DNA from: a virus
Reading direction: 5' to 3' (one strand)
Virus record (IMG/VR): IMGVR_UViG_3300013000_000010
Coordinates: 23,160 to 87,159 of that record
Length of the DNA: 64,000 nt
Part shown: positions 5,976-24,434 of the stretch, one piece after another
How positions within the stretch are numbered: position 1 is the stretch's first letter
Layout of the letters: every line of letters starts with the position of its first letter
Notes under the pieces: generated by a model
Database searches by the model: none
What the model saw: only the letters and a program-made list of their open reading frames with translations
What the model was told of the DNA's origin: nothing
Made by a program: the position numbers and the translations under genes

Positions 5976-6518
5976 ATGGCACAGGTGATTAAATTTACCG
6001 GGCTGGAGGAAGGCGGGCTGTTCAGCCGCTCTATGCTCGAAGACTATAACAAGCTGAAGACGAATCCCGCAAAGCGCGCCTTTGTGATAAACGTTATTCG
6101 TTCGGGCTATGCAGTGGAGCAGATGGGGCTTGCACCAATCCTCGCGCTGATGGAAGAGACGTACGGTGATACGTTCATGACAATGACCAAGCGTGAGCGG
6201 CTGCAGCGTCTGCTTTCGCTAATCAGCGTCACGCTGGGTGAAACCACTCCACCGACGCCGGGTATGCAGCCGGTACAGGCACCAGTGGCTGAACCAGCAG
6301 CCGCTGTCGTTGCAGCGCCACCAGCTGAAAAGGCTCAACCGGCACAGGCCGAGAATCCTTCCAGCGAAGCCGCTCAATCAGCACGGGCCGAGAGTCAGCC
6401 GGAGGCGGTTAGCGTTACTCATAATCCGGATGACAATTCATCCAAGCGCGTAGAAGAAGCACCCAAAGGTGTTACATCAAGCGCCTTAAAGCTGCAACGC
6501 CACAGAGTTTCAGGCTAA
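5976..6518 (+). CDS. Probable partition adaptor (ParR/StbB-like)
   Basis: Directly downstream of parM; folded N-terminus and low-complexity Ala/Pro/Gln tail; assigned by position. Confidence 0.6.
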   Translation: MAQVIKFTGLEEGGLFSRSMLEDYNKLKTNPAKRAFVINVIRSGYAVEQMGLAPILALMEETYGDTFMTMTKRERLQRLLSLISVTLGETTPPTPGMQPVQAPVAEPAAAVVAAPPAEKAQPAQAENPSSEAAQSARAESQPEAVSVTHNPDDNSSKRVEEAPKGVTSSALKLQRHRVSG

Positions 6519-6553: not shown

Positions 6554-6941
6554 CCATCCTTCCCCGTCTGCACATATCCATCAGTTGCCTCGCCAGCGCG
6601 CATACCGACAGCTGTTCCATTTCCTTCTTCTGCAGCACACGCTTTGTGGCGCTTTCCACACACAGCGAGTCGTAATTCAGATCCTTTCTTCCCCGCACCT
6701 TGAAAATGTAGCCGTTCATGGCCTCCAGGCGATACTGCCGGGGATAGGCATCGGGATGTACCCGGCATTGTGCGAACGGCGAACGGACAAAGGAGCGCAG
6801 GATATTCGAGATAATGCCGGTGTTCACCAACAGGTGCGGGTATTCCGTTTCCACCAGCTTAGTGACTTCGGCCACTGTCATATAGTCCTTCCTGCGAATC
6901 AACAGATCGGCCACCTCTATACTGCTCACCTTTTGCTCCAT
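6534..6941 (-). CDS. lpa: Probable late promoter activator (winged-helix)
   Basis: 135 aa wHTH-like; lies upstream of pacA on the same strand once parMR is discounted, the P1 lpa position. Confidence 0.6.
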   Translation of the reverse strand: MEQKVSSIEVADLLIRRKDYMTVAEVTKLVETEYPHLLVNTGIISNILRSFVRSPFAQCRVHPDAYPRQYRLEAMNGYIFKVRGRKDLNYDSLCVESATKRVLQKKEMEQLSVCALARQLMDMCRRGRMENAPLM

Positions 6942-7292: not shown

Positions 7293-7691
7293 TCAGCGGA
7301 GGCTTCTCAGGAAGTGGCTGACGGTCGGGGACCACAAAGTTACTATGTCACTTCCTAACTGCTGGATGACTGCGCTGTAATCGCTTAATGGCACATGCTC
7401 CCCTGCATCACCCATAAAAATCAGTTGCTGAGATGTACCGGCTTTCGCTGCGTCCACGCTGTAGGCAAATCCGGGAGTAGAACCGAAATGCTCCACCAGC
7501 TGCTCTGCCCGCCATGCGAAACGCACACCACAGTTCTTCCGGAGCTCGAGCGTCACCGTGCCGCCGACGAGCATAGCCGAAATTTCTGTACCGGCACTGG
7601 GATAACTGCGTTTACAGGAGACAGACGTAATTTGGCAGTTGGCAGCTTGCCAGTCCAGCGCTGGCAGGTCACTGATTTTAACTGTTTCCAC
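7293..7691 (-). CDS. Hypothetical protein
   Basis: 132 aa ORF coupled to the upstream gene. Confidence 0.65.
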   Translation of the reverse strand: METVKISDLPALDWQAANCQITSVSCKRSYPSAGTEISAMLVGGTVTLELRKNCGVRFAWRAEQLVEHFGSTPGFAYSVDAAKAGTSQQLIFMGDAGEHVPLSDYSAVIQQLGSDIVTLWSPTVSHFLRSLR

Positions 7692-8275
7692 TACACCAGC
7701 CTCCAGTCGCTTGCGAGAAGATCCGTTGAGGCTGGCGCCCAGTCGGAAACCGTTAGCTTTTCGGTATCAATGAGCAAAAGCTGGGGCATCTGCGTTACGG
7801 CCACATCTTGGCTGCAATCAAAGTAGCGGGCCGGTACGCCATACATATCTGATCCATTCAGTGCTGCGCGTGTCAGCCCTCTGGTGAGGCGCAGATGAAC
7901 ACCCTTCCCCCATGCTGCCCGCGCCACTTTGCAGCCCTCTGACAGCCACAGCTGCGCGACCGCCAGCGGTGCTTGCTCCTGCCTGAAACTCAGTTCGCCG
8001 GTATCAATCATCGCTTCGTTGCGCAGGATAAGATCATTCAGCTTAATCAGCGCGGCACAGGCGGCGTGGTTCAGGGTTTCGCCAAAACCGGTCATTGTCA
8101 GGCCGCTTTTGCTGATAACGGCTGCGTATCCGTCAGTTTTGGTCTCAGAAGTCTCTGTAATGGTGTATCCCAGGCGGGCAATGACAGCCAGCAGCGCCAT
8201 GTAATCGCCTGCATAGTCGGCTTCTGCGTCTGCAATCATGGCGATCGTTGCATTCAATTGTTGAGCGGTCATCAT
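7691..8275 (-). CDS. Two-domain protein: phage ABA-sandwich-like N-terminus plus Tad2/DUF2829-like C-terminus
   Basis: C-terminal KVARAAWGKGVHL ... DWAPASTDLLASDW matches the DUF2829 pattern; N-terminal GETLNHAACAALIK resembles ABA-sandwich domains. Confidence 0.65.
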   Translation of the reverse strand: MMTAQQLNATIAMIADAEADYAGDYMALLAVIARLGYTITETSETKTDGYAAVISKSGLTMTGFGETLNHAACAALIKLNDLILRNEAMIDTGELSFRQEQAPLAVAQLWLSEGCKVARAAWGKGVHLRLTRGLTRAALNGSDMYGVPARYFDCSQDVAVTQMPQLLLIDTEKLTVSDWAPASTDLLASDWRLV

Positions 8276-8277
8276 TA

Positions 8278-8586
8278 TCAGTAGCCCCGTTTCTGCTTGC
8301 GCTTCTGCGCTGCTTGCCTGCGTTTCTTCTCTGCGGCCCAGTGCTGCTGAGCTTCCGCAATGCTTGTGGCCAAATGACGCATTCCCCGTTCGATCTCTTC
8401 CTGTATGGGTGGACGGGTCTCATCCACCAGCAGCGCTCTCACCTGCGGGACCGGAACGGTCGGCGGACGACGGGCTACCCAGCTGAGGCTTCCCATAATT
8501 GCGCCCATCAGTGCGATCTTCTTCATGCGTTTTCTCTTCCTGCAGGCGTGCCGAATCCCCGGCAGGCGCCGGTGATTAAAGTTCAC
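8278..8586 (-). CDS. Small basic hypothetical protein (true start may be MKKIAL)
   Basis: ORF in the leftward operon with a Lys/Arg-rich tail. Confidence 0.5.
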   Translation of the reverse strand: MNFNHRRLPGIRHACRKRKRMKKIALMGAIMGSLSWVARRPPTVPVPQVRALLVDETRPPIQEEIERGMRHLATSIAEAQQHWAAEKKRRQAAQKRKQKRGY

Positions 8587-8665
8587 CTGGTTAAATCCGG
8601 CGTGGGATAAGCACGGCGATAATTTGAAGCCTGCGCCGGCGCGTGGCCGGGTGGCTGTAATAGCA

Positions 8666-8765
8666 TTGTGCTGACCGGATTCGAACCGGATACCGTCCGT
8701 CTGTCCCCATCAGGCCTTACGGCTGTTACATGGAACGGCGGTTGCTTCCGTTAAGCGACAACACA
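8666..8765 (-). ncRNA. tRNA-like RNA with an extended (~50 nt) arm replacing the anticodon/variable arms
   Basis: Acceptor TGTGTTG/CAGCACA, D-arm GCTT-AACGG-AAGC, T-arm CCGG-TTCGAAT-CCGG; central arm ends in GCC-GTAA-GGC; no encoded CCA. Confidence 0.55.
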
Positions 8766-8802
8766 ACGGTAAAAGCACATTGCAGGCGCTCTTACCTGTT
8801 GT
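8763..8802 (-). repeat. Conserved stem, copy 1 (RNase III-like)
   Basis: ACAACAGGTAAGAGC ... GCTTTTACCGTTGT. Confidence 0.55.
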
Positions 8803-8808
8803 CCTGTC

Positions 8809-8973
8809 TCAGCCCGCCACCAGCTGCGCGATAAGCCATTTGTGACCGGCAAACAGTCCGGCATTCAGAAGGCAGTGAAACATGACAAACTGCATGGCTC
8901 TGATGGTCTTTGTGTAAGTGCTGTCACTCATGCGCATTGCGTCCGGATTGGCTGGCTGTCTTACCCTGATCAT
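8809..8973 (-). CDS. Possible 54-aa small protein
   Basis: MIRVRQPANPDAMRMSDSTYTKTIRAMQFVMFHCLLNAGLFAGHKWLIAQLVAG; weak RBS. Confidence 0.3.
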   Translation of the reverse strand: MIRVRQPANPDAMRMSDSTYTKTIRAMQFVMFHCLLNAGLFAGHKWLIAQLVAG

Positions 8974-8988
8974 GCCAGAAATAGCGTC

Positions 8989-9378
8989 TCAATATTCTGG
9001 TAAATAAAAACCGCGAATACGTGTTGCTAATAGCTTATTGCAAAGGGATATTGCCCCTCTCTGCGCCAGCATCAGCTGTGACTCTACGGGCGATAATTCC
9101 TGAAAATGAGGTAAGTCCTGCATCATTTTAATCATCTGATCTTCCATATCTGACAGTATTTTCAGTTCCATAATGGCGCGCTGCTGATACGGTTTAAGAT
9201 GTGAAACATCGTCCATAACGACGTAGCTTTCAGCCAGTTCCTGCTCAGTTACAAGGGCGATACAGGATCCATTTTCATCCCATAATGCGTATCTGCAAAA
9301 CCCACTATGTTTTTCTATGCGCTCAATGGTTAAAGGCTGCGGTCTTGCTAAAGCGAGACGATTTTTACCCTGCCCCAT
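8989..9378 (-). CDS. Hypothetical protein
   Basis: 129 aa; GAGAGGGA RBS. Confidence 0.7.
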   Translation of the reverse strand: MGQGKNRLALARPQPLTIERIEKHSGFCRYALWDENGSCIALVTEQELAESYVVMDDVSHLKPYQQRAIMELKILSDMEDQMIKMMQDLPHFQELSPVESQLMLAQRGAISLCNKLLATRIRGFYLPEY

Positions 9379-9535
9379 ATATCCCTCTCATAAACGTTTA
9401 TGGTGGCCGGTGCCATACCCGGCAAATAACCTCTCAAGTGACTGGTCAACCTGGTTACTGGCGGCTTTAACCCCTGTGTACGCGACTGAAGAATCGGGGG
9501 CCAGTCTTGCGATCGCAGCAGCAACTGCGAATGCA

Positions 9536-9610
9536 CCACAACGGATAGAGCACTGACCATTCCTAGTCCAATGGCGCTCTGCGCAAAGCATCAATGCTCT
9601 TTCCTGTTGG
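9536..9610 (-). repeat. Conserved stem, copy 2 (RNase III-like)
   Basis: CAACAGGAAAGAGCATTGA ... TCAGTGCTCTATCCGTTGTGG. Confidence 0.55.
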
Positions 9611-9616
9611 TATGCC

Positions 9617-9745
9617 TTATTTGCGGCGCTGCTTCTTCCTGCCGCCTCTTAACGCCCTGATGAATGTCTCGATGGCATAGATGGCCACCAGCGCGTAAAT
9701 CACGGTGAGAAATGGGTGCTCTGCAGCAAATTCTGATAACGACAT
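9617..9745 (-). CDS. 42-aa single-TM peptide missing from the ORF track
   Basis: MSLSEFAAEHPFLTVIYALVAIYAIETFIRALRGGRKKQRRK; AAGGA RBS; basic tail. Confidence 0.65.
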   Translation of the reverse strand: MSLSEFAAEHPFLTVIYALVAIYAIETFIRALRGGRKKQRRK

Positions 9746-10140
9746 AATGCGTCCTTTGTAGAGGAATGCTGTCTCTTCCAGCTGTCAGAACTAATCGCCC
9801 AGGCGCTCAACCTGCAATGACGTTATCCCGCTGGCTGGCACATTCTGTGTTGACCGGATAACCAAATAGACGAAAAGGAAATAAAACGCCCAGGCTCCGC
9901 ACCCACATGTCCCAAATGCCCCACTTTCAGCCACCAGCAGGGATCGCTGGCTTGTCGTTACTGGCCGGGTTCAATAGAGTTGCGGTGACCGTTTCCCGTT
10001 AACGCGATTGTTCACTGAGGCGGGACTTAAACCCGCTTTGCTTTCGCAGCCCATCGCTGACCGCCCGTGTTAATTCACAGGCAAGGCTTCCGCCCCGTGG
10101 ATTCCGGATCCACAACTCCTACGGTGTGTTAAAGCGATCA

Positions 10141-10218
10141 CCACAACGGCCGAGAACACTGAGCAACCACGCGCCGGGTGCTCGTTTAAGTCACCCTTCA
10201 ATGTCCTCGCCGTTGTGG
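10141..10218 (-). repeat. Conserved stem, copy 3 (RNase III-like)
   Basis: CCACAACGGCGAGGACATTGA ... TCAGTGTTCTCGGCCGTTGTGG. Confidence 0.55.
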
Positions 10219-10415
10219 GCTGGTCTTTCCCAGCAGCCACGGCGTGTTGGGGCCTGCCGATACCCTGCCCCGCCACCAGCCAAATTAGCAAGTAAACAAG
10301 GCATCGCCTGGTGTTGACGTGTAGCGCATGGGGGACTGGTGCCACCAGCTGTCCGATACGGAATCTACGGACGGGTCATGTAAAGGAATTTGCAAAACGT
10401 CAGGTAACTATTCCG

Positions 10416-10586
10416 TCCCGCGTGCGCATAGCCGCATTCCCCCATTTGTGAGCACGCTGTAAGAGGTAATCTTTCGCCAAACGCCAGGTAAAACGTCAGA
10501 TGCACCAGCGCGCTCACAAATGGTGATCCCTTACGAGGATCAGGCGGGAACGTGTTTAAGCCTCATGGGGCGTTCTATGCGCGGGA
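10416..10586 (-). ncRNA. Large nested structured RNA candidate
   Basis: Outer TCCCGCGCATAG pairs with CTATGCGCACGCGGGA; inner 18-bp stem CCATTTGTGAGCGCGCTG/CAGCGTGCTCACAAATGG; side hairpin TGATCC..GTAA..GGATCA. Confidence 0.45.
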
Positions 10587-10695
10587 TTAGTCCATCAACC
10601 GCGTTCACTGCCATGACAGGAGGGGCTACTTGCCGTTCACCGTACTCATAACACACCCGGAAAAAGCTAATAACCGGGGGCGGCCCGTTACGAAC

Positions 10696-10759
10696 TGGTG
10701 CAGGTTGACGGAATTGAACCGCCGACAATGGAACACTCTACCGACTGAGCTAAACCTGC
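10696..10759 (-). ncRNA. 64-nt tRNA-derived RNA lacking the anticodon stem-loop (tRNA-Thr-like; pseudogene or mimic)
   Basis: GCAGGTT-TA-GCTC-AGTCGGTA-GAGT-GTTCCATTGTC-GGCGG-TTCAATT-CCGTC-AACCTGC-A-CCA. Confidence 0.8.
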
Positions 10760-10937
10760 TGAATACTTGCCGGTGCATACCCGGCGCGGACACTTAGGTA
10801 TCTGGTCAACCTGTCCGCTTGCGTCACGTATGAGGTCAGGAAACCTCGCCAGATTTGCAGTGCGTTTGCCTCGCTTGCTAAAGCGTTTTCCCCGTTTCAG
10901 CCGTCAGCACACCCTGATGCACTCACGGCTGAAGCTG

Positions 10938-10962
10938 AAAAAAAGCCCGGAAACTACCGGGC
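10938..10962 (-). terminator. Intrinsic terminator in the leader of the RNA-rich region
   Basis: GCCCGG-TAGTTT-CCGGGC-TTTTTTT. Confidence 0.75.
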
Positions 10963-11016
10963 CAAAAACCCTACTACACACAGCAAAGCCTACTCTGGAA
11001 TAGACTCTGATTTGTG

Positions 11017-11056
11017 AAAAAAGAGCGGATTAAACAGACAGTTATGATTAATCCGC
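11017..11056 (-). terminator. Terminator/attenuator close to the promoter
   Basis: GCGGATTAA ... TTAATCCGC-TCTTTTTT. Confidence 0.65.
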
Positions 11057-11111
11057 CAAATGCCTATTATGATTTTTGCACGGAGCCTTAAAGCTCTTGT
11101 CAGCGGGGAGG

Positions 11112-11140
11112 AATGTACACAAAACGGAGTAATGAAGCAA
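11112..11140 (-). promoter_or_regulatory. sigma70 promoter reading leftward into the RNA-rich region
   Basis: TTGCTT-17 bp-TACATT with TG immediately before the -10. Confidence 0.6.
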
Positions 11141-11170
11141 TGAAAATCTAAGAAAACTCTTAGATTTTCA
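11141..11170. promoter_or_regulatory. Operator-like inverted repeat (candidate C1 operator)
   Basis: TGAAAATCTAAGA-AAAC-TCTTAGATTTTCA, perfect 13-bp arms abutting the -35. Confidence 0.65.
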
Positions 11171-11188
11171 AAGCAAGAAAGAAGGGGG

Positions 11189-12478
11189 TTAGCGGCGTTT
11201 TACTTTGGGGTTTCTGATGTTCTCTATGTCGCCGTTCGCCTGCGCCCACTTTATGCACCAGCTGTTCACGGCAGCGCGAATTTCATTCACAGAGGCCTCA
11301 CTCAGCCCCTTCACTTTTGCCAGCTCGTCAGGCAACTCACCACCAGCATCGGCAACCGTCTCATACCCGGCCTTTGTCAGAACGTTAAGGAGGCGTGTCG
11401 GTATGGCCAGCTCGGAAACAGGCGCAGCCTTGCCGTCAAGAATGCGTTGGTGAAGACGCGGGAAATCCTGCGCCAGACGCTTCATGATCCGTGTGTGCAG
11501 CTCGTCATTGATAGCCGTGTCCCACATCGGCGCAAGCTCAGGCAGCAGGCGGAAGACCGGGTTGCCCCATATCCCTGGCACCACGTCCATTGCCAGCATC
11601 ATCGCGGTACGGATCTGGAAGTGGAAATCAGCCGTCTCGATAGACACATCCCGGACACCGTGGAAAACGCTCAGGCCAAAGTGGAAGTTGTAGATGTAGC
11701 AGCCCACGTCGCCAGAGCCATCCGGCAGCTGAAGAAGGAACTGCTGCACATCTTCCCGGCCATCATGAAATTCGACACGCTCCTTCAGATGGTTATAAAG
11801 TGCGGTCGTCTTCATCAGGTCATTGGCCGTTGCGGCGCGCTGGCGGCGTTCTTCTCCGACAACTTTATCCGCGATGTTGAGTTTGCTCTGTAGCTCCTGC
11901 CGCTTAAGGCTGTCTTTTTTGCGATCGGCGCGCTGCTGTGAAATGGTTTTGTCACGTTCATTCAGGTCTCGCGCCAGGCGCTCAGGATTCTTGCGGCGAT
12001 ACTGTTCATATTCCTGTGAGACAGAGGTAAACGCCAGCTGCGCGGTGGTCAGGGCAGACCTGATACCCTCCAGCTGATTCTCTGCATTGATTACGCGGTT
12101 GTCCGCCTCCAGCACCCTCTGAGTAGCCGCCTCACGGGCCTCTTCAATGGCGTTCTCGGCATCGAGCCGAATTTTTGTTACTTCGTTGACCAGTGCGGAC
12201 TGCGCGCCCAGCTGCTGCTGTACCTGCTCCAGTGTGTCTAATAGCAGGTTGTAGGTATCAGCCTCATGATTGAGCCGCATGCCGATATCGATCTGGATCT
12301 GCTCCAGAGCGTTCGTGCAGTTATCAAGAAGGCGCAGCTCCAGGTCATCAAGCGTCAGGCGTTTACGGATGGAATTAAGCTGGCTGTAAGCGGTGACAAA
12401 CGCCTGGTGCAGAACATCGTCATCGACGTTGCATACAGGGAGATTTTGCAGCTGCTGGAGTGGAGCGAGTGTAGTCAT
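11189..12478 (-). CDS. pmgS: PmgS-like coiled-coil protein with C-terminal RNAP alpha-CTD-like HhH domain
   Basis: 429 aa; long coiled coil; PVSELAIPTRLLNVLTKAG...VKGLSEASVNEIRAAV resembles RpoA CTD; symbol from size and phage context. Confidence 0.6.
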   Translation of the reverse strand: MTTLAPLQQLQNLPVCNVDDDVLHQAFVTAYSQLNSIRKRLTLDDLELRLLDNCTNALEQIQIDIGMRLNHEADTYNLLLDTLEQVQQQLGAQSALVNEVTKIRLDAENAIEEAREAATQRVLEADNRVINAENQLEGIRSALTTAQLAFTSVSQEYEQYRRKNPERLARDLNERDKTISQQRADRKKDSLKRQELQSKLNIADKVVGEERRQRAATANDLMKTTALYNHLKERVEFHDGREDVQQFLLQLPDGSGDVGCYIYNFHFGLSVFHGVRDVSIETADFHFQIRTAMMLAMDVVPGIWGNPVFRLLPELAPMWDTAINDELHTRIMKRLAQDFPRLHQRILDGKAAPVSELAIPTRLLNVLTKAGYETVADAGGELPDELAKVKGLSEASVNEIRAAVNSWCIKWAQANGDIENIRNPKVKRR

Positions 12479-12536
12479 ATTGAGAATCAGATCCGCGTGT
12501 AATTTGCGGCGGATGATAACTCGAAATTAACCACTG

Positions 12537-12554
12537 TCTAAGGTTTTTCTTAGA
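12537..12554. promoter_or_regulatory. Operator-like palindrome over the pmgS promoter
   Basis: TCTAAG-GTTTTT-CTTAGA overlapping a minus-strand TTAGAC-17-TATCAT. Confidence 0.55.
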
Positions 12555-12619
12555 TTTAGTTAAACTATCAAGATGAGGTTGCTGGTGGCGTTATCGTGGA
12601 CTCCGCCACCAGCGGAGGG

Positions 12620-22178: not shown

Positions 22179-23876
22179 TTGGCTACTAAAAATAAGGCAC
22201 TGTCTGTTTTAAGCGCATTGAGGCAGGCATTCCGGGGCGCGGCAGCAGAAGCACCACAAAGCCTCGCATGGACCAACGGACAGAACGTGGTCGTCTCGCG
22301 CTCCGGGCTGGCGGCAATGGCCTACAAAGAGGGAAATGCGGGGGAAATGACTTCCGCCGGCGACAGTCTTTTCCTGGGCGCGGAGCTGCCGCTGGACAGG
22401 CTGCAGCGCTATGCGATTCTGGAAGAAATGGCGAATAGCCCAACGTGCTCAGCCGCTCTGAATATCCACATTGGCCACGCACTCGCGCCGGACAAAAAAA
22501 CCGGGCTGGCGTTCTCTATTGTGCCGGTTGACCCGTCCGACGCAGAAGGCGCGGCGCGGGCCAAAGAGCTACAGGATGATTTGGGCGCGATGATTAACCG
22601 ACACCTGCCGTCGCTGGCTATGACAATGGCGATTTTCGGCGTGTCCTATGTGCGCCCTTATGCCCGCTCAGGGAAAGGGATCACCAGCCTGGAAAATAGC
22701 TATTACTCGTTGCCCTACTTCATTCAGGAGTTTTACAAAGGCGATCAGCTGGTGGGCTTCGGCGGGGACTATGTGCTTTCGCCAGACACCCATACCCGCA
22801 CACTATCTACGCCGTGGTCTCTGGTCCCGATGAAAAATCCGTACTGGACCCCGACGCGCAACGTTCAGCCCGTGACGTCCGGCAATCGTGGTTACTCTCT
22901 GCTATCAGAGGAAGAGGACAAGGAGGTTGCGGAGACGCAGAATTACGGCACCAGCTTCCTGGCGCATGCCTATGAGCCTTTCCTGAATCTGGTCGGCGCG
23001 CTGAATGCGCTGAAGGCAACGCGCTACAACGCCGCCAAAATTGACCGCCTGATTGCCCTGACAACCAACTCACTCGATCCGGTTGTCGGTGCGAACTACA
23101 CCCGCACTGTGTCGCAGACGCTCAAGCGCCACGGCGAAGCACTCCAGAAAAAAGCGGTTAACGGCAACACTATGCCAACCGTGATGAACCATGTGATCCC
23201 GGTGATGGGAGACGGTAAAAACGGCATTACGATCGACACGCAGTCGATACCCGCGGACATTACCGGCATTGAGGACGTGATGTTTCACCTGCGCCAGCTG
23301 TGCGCTGCGCTCGGTATCGACTCGACTATGCTGGGGTGGGCCGATCAGATGGCGGGCGGGCTGGGTGAAGGCGGCTGGATTCAGACGGCTATACAGGCGG
23401 CACTCCGGGCGCAGTGGCTGCGACAGGGCGCGCAGGAAATGATTTACCGGCTGATCGATATTCACCTGGCGTTCAAATACGGCAAGGTTTACCCGGTTAA
23501 GGATCGGCCCTATGTAGTTCAGTTCAACTCGATGAACACCGCCATTCAGGAAGAAGAAAGCCGCGAAATGGACGCCCGCGCCAACTTCATTACCCTGATG
23601 GTGCAGGTCATGGATGCGCTGCAGGCCAACAACAAGCTGGCGGAGAACGACACATTCATGCGCTACCTGTTCAGTGATCAGCTGAAGATGGACGGCGACA
23701 CGCTCGACAAAATGCTGGCGGAGTTTGAGAAGAGCAGGAAGAAAGCGGACGCTCAGGAGGATGAGGGCGGCGGCAGCATGATGAATGAATCTGCTCCTGA
23801 CGGCAGTGATCCGGCCAGCTGGTCCCGTGAAGAACTCATAGCCTTTGCTCGTTTTGTAACCTCACCAGACAAATAA
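22179..23876 (+). CDS. prt: Portal protein
   Basis: 565 aa; divergent from darB and upstream of the protease as in P1. Confidence 0.85.
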   Translation: MATKNKALSVLSALRQAFRGAAAEAPQSLAWTNGQNVVVSRSGLAAMAYKEGNAGEMTSAGDSLFLGAELPLDRLQRYAILEEMANSPTCSAALNIHIGHALAPDKKTGLAFSIVPVDPSDAEGAARAKELQDDLGAMINRHLPSLAMTMAIFGVSYVRPYARSGKGITSLENSYYSLPYFIQEFYKGDQLVGFGGDYVLSPDTHTRTLSTPWSLVPMKNPYWTPTRNVQPVTSGNRGYSLLSEEEDKEVAETQNYGTSFLAHAYEPFLNLVGALNALKATRYNAAKIDRLIALTTNSLDPVVGANYTRTVSQTLKRHGEALQKKAVNGNTMPTVMNHVIPVMGDGKNGITIDTQSIPADITGIEDVMFHLRQLCAALGIDSTMLGWADQMAGGLGEGGWIQTAIQAALRAQWLRQGAQEMIYRLIDIHLAFKYGKVYPVKDRPYVVQFNSMNTAIQEEESREMDARANFITLMVQVMDALQANNKLAENDTFMRYLFSDQLKMDGDTLDKMLAEFEKSRKKADAQEDEGGGSMMNESAPDGSDPASWSREELIAFARFVTSPDK

Positions 23877-24197: not shown

Positions 24198-24330
24198 GGA
24201 GTGCTCCTCGTACAAAAGGAAGCGTCACTACGGGAGGTTCCAATCTCCGGGTGGTGACGTTGACAGGGTTGGAACTACCGGCGTACGAGGAGACCGGCCT
24301 ACCCGAAGGTAGCCCCGCCAACGCCACCAT
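24190..24330 (-). CDS. Ash/Icd-family leader peptide (46 aa)
   Basis: MVALAGLPSGRPVSSYAGSSNPVNVTTRRLEPPVVTLPFVRGALHA; stop overlaps the next start (ATGCCTGA). Confidence 0.7.
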   Translation of the reverse strand: MVALAGLPSGRPVSSYAGSSNPVNVTTRRLEPPVVTLPFVRGALHA

Positions 24331-24434
24331 TGAAACATCTGGCAAACTCCAGACGTGGTAGCGCCGGAGGCACTAAGTGCCTCCTCGTACATTCGTTCGG
24401 GGTTCCAATCCCGACCACTGTTTTACAGTGGCGC
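24320..24434 (-). ncRNA. C4/CI-type antisense RNA
   Basis: Multi-branch fold with CGGG-ATTGGAAC-CCCG loop and GTACGAGGAG, complementary to downstream CTCCTCGTAC (24283-24292) and GTTCCAACCC (24266-24275). Confidence 0.75.

Follow-up and report, generated by a model that had tools for sequence, protein, structure and literature searches.

Anticodon-less tRNA derivatives and a modular array of conserved structured RNAs in the tRNA region of a D6/P1-type Pantoea phage-plasmid

We analyzed an island at positions 8590-11180, minus strand, of the window, by which we mean the whole 64,000-nt stretch of virus DNA studied here (IMG/VR record IMGVR_UViG_3300013000_000010, positions 23,160 to 87,159). 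By its gene order, the island is the tRNA region of a D6/P1-type Pantoea phage-plasmid. The phage is without any decoding tRNA, and the reading that we consider reasonably probable is that a D6/P1-type tRNA/small-RNA island has lost all its decoding tRNAs and now consists of modular structured RNAs, selectively kept and read on the minus strand, in which the tRNA derivatives would be retained as handles for cutting and stabilization rather than as decoders. The units of the island are conserved better than the neighboring genes, their helices are kept by compensatory change while the tips vary, and modules have been shuffled between phage lineages. The initial annotation of this DNA had described a chain of structured non-coding RNAs, and our findings support that description: the units are co-oriented and conserved, and they include non-decoding RNAs derived from tRNAs.

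Part of this content is already known, namely the phage tRNA region, STnc100 and RprA. The tRNA region of P1 and D6 has been annotated (D6 record; PMC6799933), and STnc100 is a published prophage small RNA (sRNA) of unknown function (bioRxiv 10.64898/2026.05.13.724894; PMC12370729). The initial statement that no such locus had been described for P1-like phages consequently fails for these components and stands for the tRNAs lacking an anticodon arm, for the RNA that we call module d and for the RprA-like unit. As far as we found, the selected anticodon-less tRNA derivatives, the kissing loop of module d, a further unit (M2) and the RprA-like phage RNA have not been described in print.

A PmgS-like gene borders the island on one side and a Tad2-like gene on the other, and all units of the island are on the minus strand. 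The same gene order (a VRR-NUC gene, two small genes, the PmgS-like gene, a stretch poor in open reading frames (ORFs), the DUF2829/Tad2-like gene, lpa and pacA) is common to the window, phage D6 and plasmids of approximately 90 kb from Pantoea, Leclercia and Enterobacter. The D6 region runs from pmgS through a gap, tRNA-Asn, tRNA-Thr, a tRNA-Ser-like (Ser/Sec-like) gene, an STnc100-like RNA, tciA, tciB and tRNA-Met, followed by lpa and pacA. Among INPHARED phages, the island gives no match by either megablast or blastn.

tRNA-shaped RNAs and conservation of RNA structure

Two RNAs with a tRNA shape and an abnormal anticodon arm had been proposed in the island, and both were recovered. Each possesses an acceptor stem, a D arm and a T arm with a UUCRANY loop, and the stems keep compensatory changes in relatives; each lacks the anticodon stem and the 7-nt anticodon loop. 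ARAGORN calls no tRNA in the window, and the complete genome, a virus record of 90,665 bp with terminal repeats, contains no further match to the tRNA model.

Against RF00005, for which the gathering score is 29 bits, the armless RNA (10699-10759, minus strand) scores 47.4 bits, above that threshold; three nucleotides replace the 15 positions of the anticodon arm, and an encoded CCA follows. By sequence it is a deletion derivative of a phage tRNA-Thr: it is identical to the D6 tRNA-Thr at 52 of 64 positions and has lost 12 nt in the anticodon stem-loop. The armless form is kept in the L002/L041 clade (approximately 81% identity; L numbers identify individual loci), where the acceptor pair U6-A67 has become C6-G67. 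Other relatives carry in the same slot a different, 73-nt class-II-type tRNA derivative with CCA, which is also anticodon-defective. This allele arose separately, by deletion within an odd 83-nt tRNA-like gene carried by Leclercia plasmids. The anticodon region was thus lost twice independently in one slot; what was kept each time is the CCA together with the acceptor, D and T arms.

The second unit, tRNA-like RNA 2 (8666-8765, 100 nt), carries a GNRA-capped arm of approximately 50 nt in place of the anticodon arm. It scores 27.3 bits in the window, below the RF00005 cut-off, and its homologue in the L002 clade, which has a 35-nt insert, reaches 45.9 bits. Five pairs of the long arm are changed on both sides in an RNAalifold analysis of 18 sequences, and the 5' acceptor strand coincides with copy 3 of a repeat described below. 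Overall, these comparisons support the view that the tRNA-derived units are non-decoding yet held by purifying selection.

Further unusual tRNA-like sequences occur in related loci. Pantoea PSNIH1-type plasmids (L002 and L006, 4537-4617, minus strand) contain an extra tRNA-like gene (50 bits) with nine additional anticodon-loop nucleotides, which ARAGORN reads as “tRNA-Stop (tta)” and which has no counterpart in the window. Over-long tRNA calls of 81-82 nt, labeled “tRNA-Ala ggc” / “tRNA-Gln ttg”, adjoin module d in L066 (6186-6266) and L084 (5269-5350) and may represent further non-canonical tRNA-like units.

Conservation extends beyond the tRNA-shaped units. The block 9985-11180 is 81-99% identical in 40-odd relatives, compared with approximately 73% for the flanking genes of the distant clade. 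The stems on which the initial annotation relied are conserved in relatives, and compensatory changes are found in them. Across 21 distinct sequences, 97.4% of cells are paired, versus 96.1±0.1% in column-shuffled alignments (none of 300 shuffles reaches 97.4%) and approximately 40% with slid partners; pairs changed on both sides number 14, versus 9.5±1.5 in shuffles (4 of 300). Covariation support for RNA structure over the island is therefore moderate. These analyses used local helices alone, as global RNAalifold folding over 800 nt yielded spurious long-range pairs. Profile searches also reveal that the units travel separately: Leclercia plasmids have modules d, e and f, Enterobacter plasmids have module d only, and in D6 the matches are to module f, in two copies, and to part of module g.

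The poverty in ORFs noted initially (none at about 9750-11180) was confirmed, with no conserved ORF at 9746-11188 and indels of 1, 11 and 41 nt in relatives. An Rfam search of the window region and of a lambdoid-type prophage (L054) gave no group I/II intron or self-cleaving ribozyme at E ≤ 10. A template for a tag like that of transfer-messenger RNA (tmRNA) was considered and rejected: neither a tag-like frame nor an arm complementary to host tmRNA is present, and apart from the T-arm-like match given below, the best similarity or complementarity to Pantoea tmRNA spans 10 nt (E 0.7).

Structure and distribution of module d

Module d consists of a 6-bp stem (P_a), in which a C-G to U-A covariation is observed, an internal loop, a 5-bp stem and a terminal hairpin whose stem (P_e) shows many compensatory variants. 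Its apical loop pairs with 3-4 nt located just 5' of a conserved C-GYY, forming the kissing interaction; in this phage the paired loop nucleotides are GGA/UCC. A complementary loop triplet is present in all 16 sequence types (16/16), compared with 15 of 196 non-cognate pairings (permutation p < 5e-5), and a 4-bp loop-loop match occurs in 7 of the 16 types versus 0 of 222 non-cognate pairings.

A 22-nt motif of module d is invariant across genera, and an exact search with it retrieved 46 IMG/VR contigs and 6 contigs of species-representative genomes. Many carriers are prophages of 41-48 kb, in which module d occupies the early-left leader, after a cI-like helix-turn-helix gene and before an intrinsic terminator; in Enterobacter plasmids it precedes an RprA-like terminator. 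The start of module d directly follows a CCA in three contexts: the armless tRNA, the alternative 73-nt allele and true tRNA-Met genes. The last of these is seen in L073 and in a Pectobacterium chromosome (L088), where a normal tRNA-Met-CCA lies directly 5' of module d.

The covariance model R1, built on the module d alignment, gives the window copy 133 bits and finds no match in the D6 locus. It matched 1 of 151 Enterobacterales genomes, namely the reference genome around which the 150-genome sample was drawn. No Rfam family matched module d at E ≤ 10 in the window region or in L054, and a literature search with the sequence of its core returned chance hits only.

Control region, remaining units and cargo

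Table 1. Features of the island in window coordinates, listed from the upstream to the downstream end of the minus strand.
Feature	Positions	Strand	Description
Palindromic operator-like site	11145-11166	-	AATCTAAGA-N4-TCTTAGATT
Promoter-like site	11112-11140 (read 11140 to 11112)	-	TTGCTT-17-TACATT; putative, read from the sequence
Intrinsic terminator-like hairpin 1	11017-11056	-	GCGGAUUAA...UUAAUCCGC, then U run; conserved in relatives
RprA-like unit	10938-10998	-	GAGUAG, then UUGCUGUGUGUAGU (10986-10973), then intrinsic terminator 2 (10963-10938; called by scanner)
Leader	10766-10936	-	Four or five conserved hairpins; includes CCGG-GUAUGCA-CCGG just 5' of the tRNA-like RNA
Anticodon-armless tRNA-like RNA	10696-10759	-	61 nt plus encoded CCA; tRNA-Thr derivative by sequence
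Module d	10519-10695 (core 10519-10645)	-	5' hairpin and kissing-loop core, ~175 nt; begins right after CCA
Module e	10444-10521	-	Long hairpin; 16-bp base stem, variable tip
Module f	10328-10445	-	STnc100/PasD-like multi-stem RNA; closing stem AUGGGGG/CCCCCAU, GAAU, 3' hairpin CUGG-UGGCA-CCAG
Hairpins including module g	10144-10327	-	Module g 10144-10218, ~20-bp branched stem; 3' strand is repeat copy 1
Unit h	9984-10143	-	~160-nt multi-branch structure; 8-11-bp closing stem, GNRA-capped hairpins, T-arm-like hairpin 10019-10036
Variable spacer	9747-9983	-	Cargo insertion point; missing or replaced in L004 and L005
orf42	9617-9745	-	Small hydrophobic protein, basic tail; AAGGA ribosome-binding site
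Unit M2	9395-9550	-	155-nt non-coding; closed by repeat copy 2 (UUGUGGUG/CACCAUAA); T-arm-position hairpin GCCGG-GUAUGGCA-CCGGC
129-aa cargo ORF	8989-9378	-	Exactly between conserved units
40-aa ORF	8809-8931	-	Variable columns per codon position 8, 9 and 27; coding-sequence annotation in relatives
Hairpin and tRNA-like RNA 2	8768-8796 (hairpin); 8666-8765 (tRNA-like)	-	Acceptor, short D arm, canonical T arm; without CCA

Upstream control region: The operator-like palindrome has a second copy, with three mismatches, solely at 12535-12556, upstream of the PmgS-like gene, versus 0.01 expected by chance. The two copies suggest that the island and the PmgS-like gene probably share a regulator. The palindrome is conserved in the close Pantoea clade and not in the L002 clade; the promoter-like site keeps its -10 region across all clades. 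Both the promoter and the operator of the initial annotation are thus present as sites, but the promoter is not called by a simple scanner for consensus promoters, which placed it below threshold and called no further one. A P1-type C1 operator near the promoter was considered and rejected, there being merely a weak ATTGCT match at a site unrepeated in the window. Downstream of the promoter-like site lie terminators 1 and 2, which were absent from the initial account.

RprA-like unit and leader: The 14-nt core of the RprA-like unit is identical to that of the host Pantoea RprA and occupies the equivalent place before the terminator. The window copy has no Rfam RprA match at E ≤ 10 and falls short of the gathering score (70 bits for RF00034), against which an Enterobacter plasmid homologue reaches 63.4 bits. 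Similar 3' modules (UUGCUGUGUGUAGUCUUUGCC plus terminator) are found in Enterobacter phage-plasmids (L047 3894-3996, 63 bits) and right after module d in lambdoid-type prophages (L054 5369-5469). An RprA-like core of 23-24 nt is exact in the Erwinia jumbo phage pEa_SNUABM_1 and in the E. coli phages LLS, Eeyore and Flotzy (phage hits H29-H33). The leader that follows is conserved in 6 of 6 relatives, with variation in the hairpin tips.

Modules e to h: The tip of module e bears a 41-nt deletion in L001 and L028 and is replaced in the L002 clade, and the base stem is kept with CG/UG/UA changes. In an nhmmer comparison, module f matches the STnc100-like sequences of D6 (E 1.8e-6) and of Leclercia. 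Against RF02076, which has a gathering score of 47 bits, the D6 sequence reaches 39.6 bits and the Leclercia one 36.4; a search of 8300-11500 at E ≤ 10 returns no RF02076 match for module f itself. Its closing stem shows complementary differences between lineages. A second, unannotated STnc100-like copy is present in D6 (L050, 9287-9390) after tRNA-Met. RNAalifold identifies compensatory pairs in the hairpins at 10144-10327 (CG/UA, AU/GU/GC, GC/AU/UA and GU/CG), and in unit h the hairpin GCCUGUG...CACGGGC shows the compensatory pairs UG/GU/UA/GC and UA/CG.

Several proposals of the initial annotation concern this part of the island. A nested structure of about 170 nt is supported by RNAalifold at 9984-10143. 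The isolated T-arm placed at 10014-10035 corresponds to a hairpin at 10019-10036 with an invariant GCGGG/CCCGC stem, but its loop, UUUAAGU, lacks the canonical C56; this hairpin is identical to the T arm of Pantoea tmRNA at 16 of 18 positions, a weak match (E 0.7). The three copies of one stem were found as the motif CCGTTGTGKTG at 8759, 9534 and 10139, all on the minus strand and all in the island, versus 0.08 expected. The remaining items listed, such as GNRA-capped hairpins, are all present in the sequence. In L030 (IMGVR_UViG_3300031413_000007, approximately 6340-6360), a natural deletion has brought tRNA-like RNA 2 into direct contact with the CCGUUGUG repeat of module g/h; because this deletion lies between repeat copies 1 and 3, removing unit h, orf42, M2 and the 40-aa ORF, the repeated stems evidently recombine.

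Unit M2: No reading frame of M2 is open across relatives, which carry 1-nt indels, and variability by codon position is even (10, 12 and 13). A 67-aa ORF overlapping it (9388-9591) was rejected as a gene, given the stops and frameshifts in relatives and the lack of codon periodicity. M2 is found in the Pantoea group only, where it is approximately 90-98% identical even where the flanks are at approximately 73%.

Coding content and cargo: Three real-looking short ORFs are present in the island, all within 8590-9750. In orf42, which is kept in all clades and annotated as a coding sequence in relatives, variable alignment columns number 14, 11 and 31 by codon position, a third-position bias. The 129-aa ORF is confined to the window and L001-type relatives, most relatives being without it. 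Neither orf42 nor the 129-aa ORF matched a Pfam family. The slot at 9747-9983 is occupied by TerB and DUF3927 genes in two relatives (L001 and L003) and by an SPFH/protease gene in two others (L002 and L006). Cargo, including these genes and the 129-aa ORF, always lies at unit borders.

Genomic setting: Directly upstream of the island is the PmgS-like gene (429 aa, 11189-12478, minus strand), a head-morphogenesis, late-type gene. The gene downstream (7691-8275, minus strand) encodes a Tad2-like (Thoeris anti-defence 2) domain (PF11195, E 4.6e-10), and its homologue in relatives is annotated as an MW1434-family or DUF2829 protein. A C4 antisense RNA is located elsewhere in the window, at 24247-24334. 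In D6 (L050), the gap after pmgS contains a weak permuted-tmRNA match (6744-6917, 24 bits, E 0.04). One relative, L006 (CP060164.1), is labeled Acinetobacter venetianus, and its hit coordinates and its identity to the window agree with those of the phage-plasmid from Pantoea sp. PSNIH1; the record may name the wrong host, or an unusual host jump may have taken place.

Reading of the island and comparison with known systems

In the reading that we favor, transcription would start at the operator-flanked promoter near 11112, perhaps with additional read-in from the upstream PmgS-like gene. Most transcripts would end at the two terminators to give short RNAs, the second of which, ending in the RprA core, is probably an Hfq-type mimic of the host RprA. 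Where transcription reads through, host tRNA-maturation enzymes would cleave the RNA at its tRNA-shaped units, RNase P acting at the 5' side and RNase E and exonucleases at the 3' side. The products would be module d, its 5' end defined by the cut, the units farther downstream and short cargo mRNAs. RNase P cutting at the tRNA-shaped units is plausible from their sequence. Judging solely by their length of 16-20 bp, the long perfect stems of modules e and g might be cut by RNase III. The best argument for a handle role is the conserved junction between CCA and module d behind three different tRNA or tRNA-like genes, which fits such a role; the armless RNA occupies the position that a true tRNA has 5' of module d in other phages and thus also fits a processing handle.

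Several observations weigh against this reading. Two intrinsic terminators separate the sole promoter-like site from the tRNA-like units, and the scanner finds no other promoter. With the terminators directly behind that site, one long transcript is not the simple expectation, and since the palindrome is shared with a late-type gene, “early” timing is doubtful; the single long early transcript of the initial annotation therefore appears doubtful. Many prophage copies of module d have no tRNA upstream, so a tRNA handle is not required for module d. Covariation within the Pantoea set is modest because its sequences are related and diverge by just approximately 11%, and the sequence of M2 is too invariant for a test of its structure. 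In the runs labeled as transcriptomic (X4-X8), the element lies within whole plasmid contigs of approximately 98 kb, which imply DNA content or mislabeling, making these runs uninformative on expression. Raw RNA-seq runs X19, X20, X22 and X23 have zero reads on the region, the element being absent from those strains.

We put forward only tentatively, as a possibility, a more specific proposal: that module d is an undescribed class of kissing-loop phage RNA with an invariant core of 22-24 nt, that its carriers, temperate phages of enterobacteria, span at least three genome types, that its target is some conserved machine of the host, for instance RNA polymerase, which it would modify in the manner of put, and that the former tRNA genes here are selected processing handles or CCA-end decoys for module d.

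Other explanations of the island deserve consideration. Module d, and perhaps other units, might act in cis on RNA polymerase or on their own transcript, as HK022 put or nut sites do; transcription would then pass the terminators to the cargo, Tad2-like, lpa and pacA genes, and the island would be a regulatory leader rather than a source of trans-acting RNAs. The early-left location of module d in lambdoid-type prophages suggests such a put-like role, its placement 5' of an RprA-like terminator in Enterobacter plasmids points in the same direction, and its invariant core suggests binding to a conserved host machine. We nevertheless regard this explanation as unlikely: in the window, both strong terminators are upstream of module d and no terminator is mapped beyond it, and the likeness to put is one of position alone. 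We give appreciably less weight to the idea that the anticodon-less RNAs, one of them with CCA, are decoys that soak up host defence or toxin enzymes recognizing the acceptor/T-arm half or the CCA end, which would protect host tRNAs during phage growth and leave decoding undisturbed. The double loss of the anticodon arm with retention of the other arms and CCA would be in line with it, as would the adjoining Tad2-like anti-defence gene and variable cargo; yet the locus shows no link to a defence system or toxin, tRNA-like RNA 2 is without CCA, a gene-encoded CCA is the ancestral state among tRNA genes of the enterobacterial type, and a processing role explains the junction with module d more directly.

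The region 9984-10695 (approximately 710 nt) is free of ORFs, contains many GNRA loops and T-loop-like motifs, lies next to a tRNA-like RNA and forms one conserved block in all Pantoea-group elements, as might be expected of a single ornate GOLLD/ROOL-like fold. Such a fold is nevertheless highly improbable, given that modules are found apart from the rest in other elements (Enterobacter plasmids and prophages have only d, Leclercia has d-e-f, and D6 has f-like copies), that no long-range pair shows covariation, and that Rfam GOLLD and ROOL give no match at E ≤ 10. Least credible to us is decay, in which the tRNA-like sequences would be pseudogenes and the rest spacer kept by hitch-hiking or as sites for recombination and cargo insertion. 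The anticodon-arm defects are indeed simple deletions, cargo is found at unit borders, and the L030 deletion between two CCGUUGUG copies demonstrates recombination at repeats; however, the island is conserved above its flanking genes, with compensatory stem changes and loop-loop covariation, and the armless form, with its acceptor pair compensated, has survived approximately 19% divergence.

The usual view of phage tRNA regions is that they aid codon usage; here a complete temperate phage retains tRNA shapes without decoding. In this phage, a structural role, whether as processing handle or decoy, would be separable from the decoding role, which offers a clean test system. The island adds unannotated RNA genes: an RprA-like RNA, a distant relative of STnc100 and a strongly conserved kissing-loop RNA that also occurs in lambdoid-type prophages and, from where it lies, may control transcription. 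The RprA-like RNA places the functional end of RprA on a phage and could, in lysogens, rewire the circuits of RpoS and biofilm formation. Swaps of cargo and anti-defence genes take place at the borders between units, which bears on how phage-plasmids acquire accessory genes.

Non-decoding tRNA-like structures that serve as RNase P/Z cut sites setting the ends of non-coding RNAs are found in MALAT1-mascRNA and in the tRNA-miRNA units of gammaherpesvirus 68; mascRNA, like the armless RNA, is of approximately 61 nt. These units belong to another domain of life and have no homology to those described here, so the analogy is one of mechanism alone. Closer in setting, the C4 RNA of P1/P7 and the CI RNA of P4 are reportedly matured by RNase P, and the 3'ETS-leuZ sRNA of E. 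coli is said to be released from a tRNA precursor. Together with the species 1 and 2 RNAs of T4, these are reported to be small structured RNAs obtained from a longer precursor through tRNA-type shapes or adjacent tRNAs, and the island resembles them in this respect. It differs in that its predicted handles are several complete cloverleaf derivatives without the anticodon arm only, with processing inferred from sequence.

Individual units have their own counterparts. The put-type antiterminator RNA of HK022 fits module d by position alone, and for the prophage copies. The RprA-like unit shares with RprA (RF00034), an Hfq-dependent enterobacterial sRNA, the GAGUAG and 14-nt core directly before a Rho-independent terminator. 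The likeness is limited to the 3' core, whereas the 5' half is unrelated and the unit is phage-borne, behind a phage operator. Similarly, module f resembles the STnc100 (RF02076)/PasD prophage sRNAs in its 7-bp closing stem, GAAU, internal hairpins and 3' CYGG-WGGCA-CCRG hairpin beside the closing stem, and differs in lying below detection by the Rfam model even at E ≤ 10. The nearest system remains the D6/P1 tRNA region, which the island matches in position, strand and gene order, with tci-type cargo in some relatives. Whereas D6 has four decoding tRNAs, the window genome has zero, and the slots are filled by anticodon-defective derivatives, accompanied by module d and unit M2, both of which are missing from D6.

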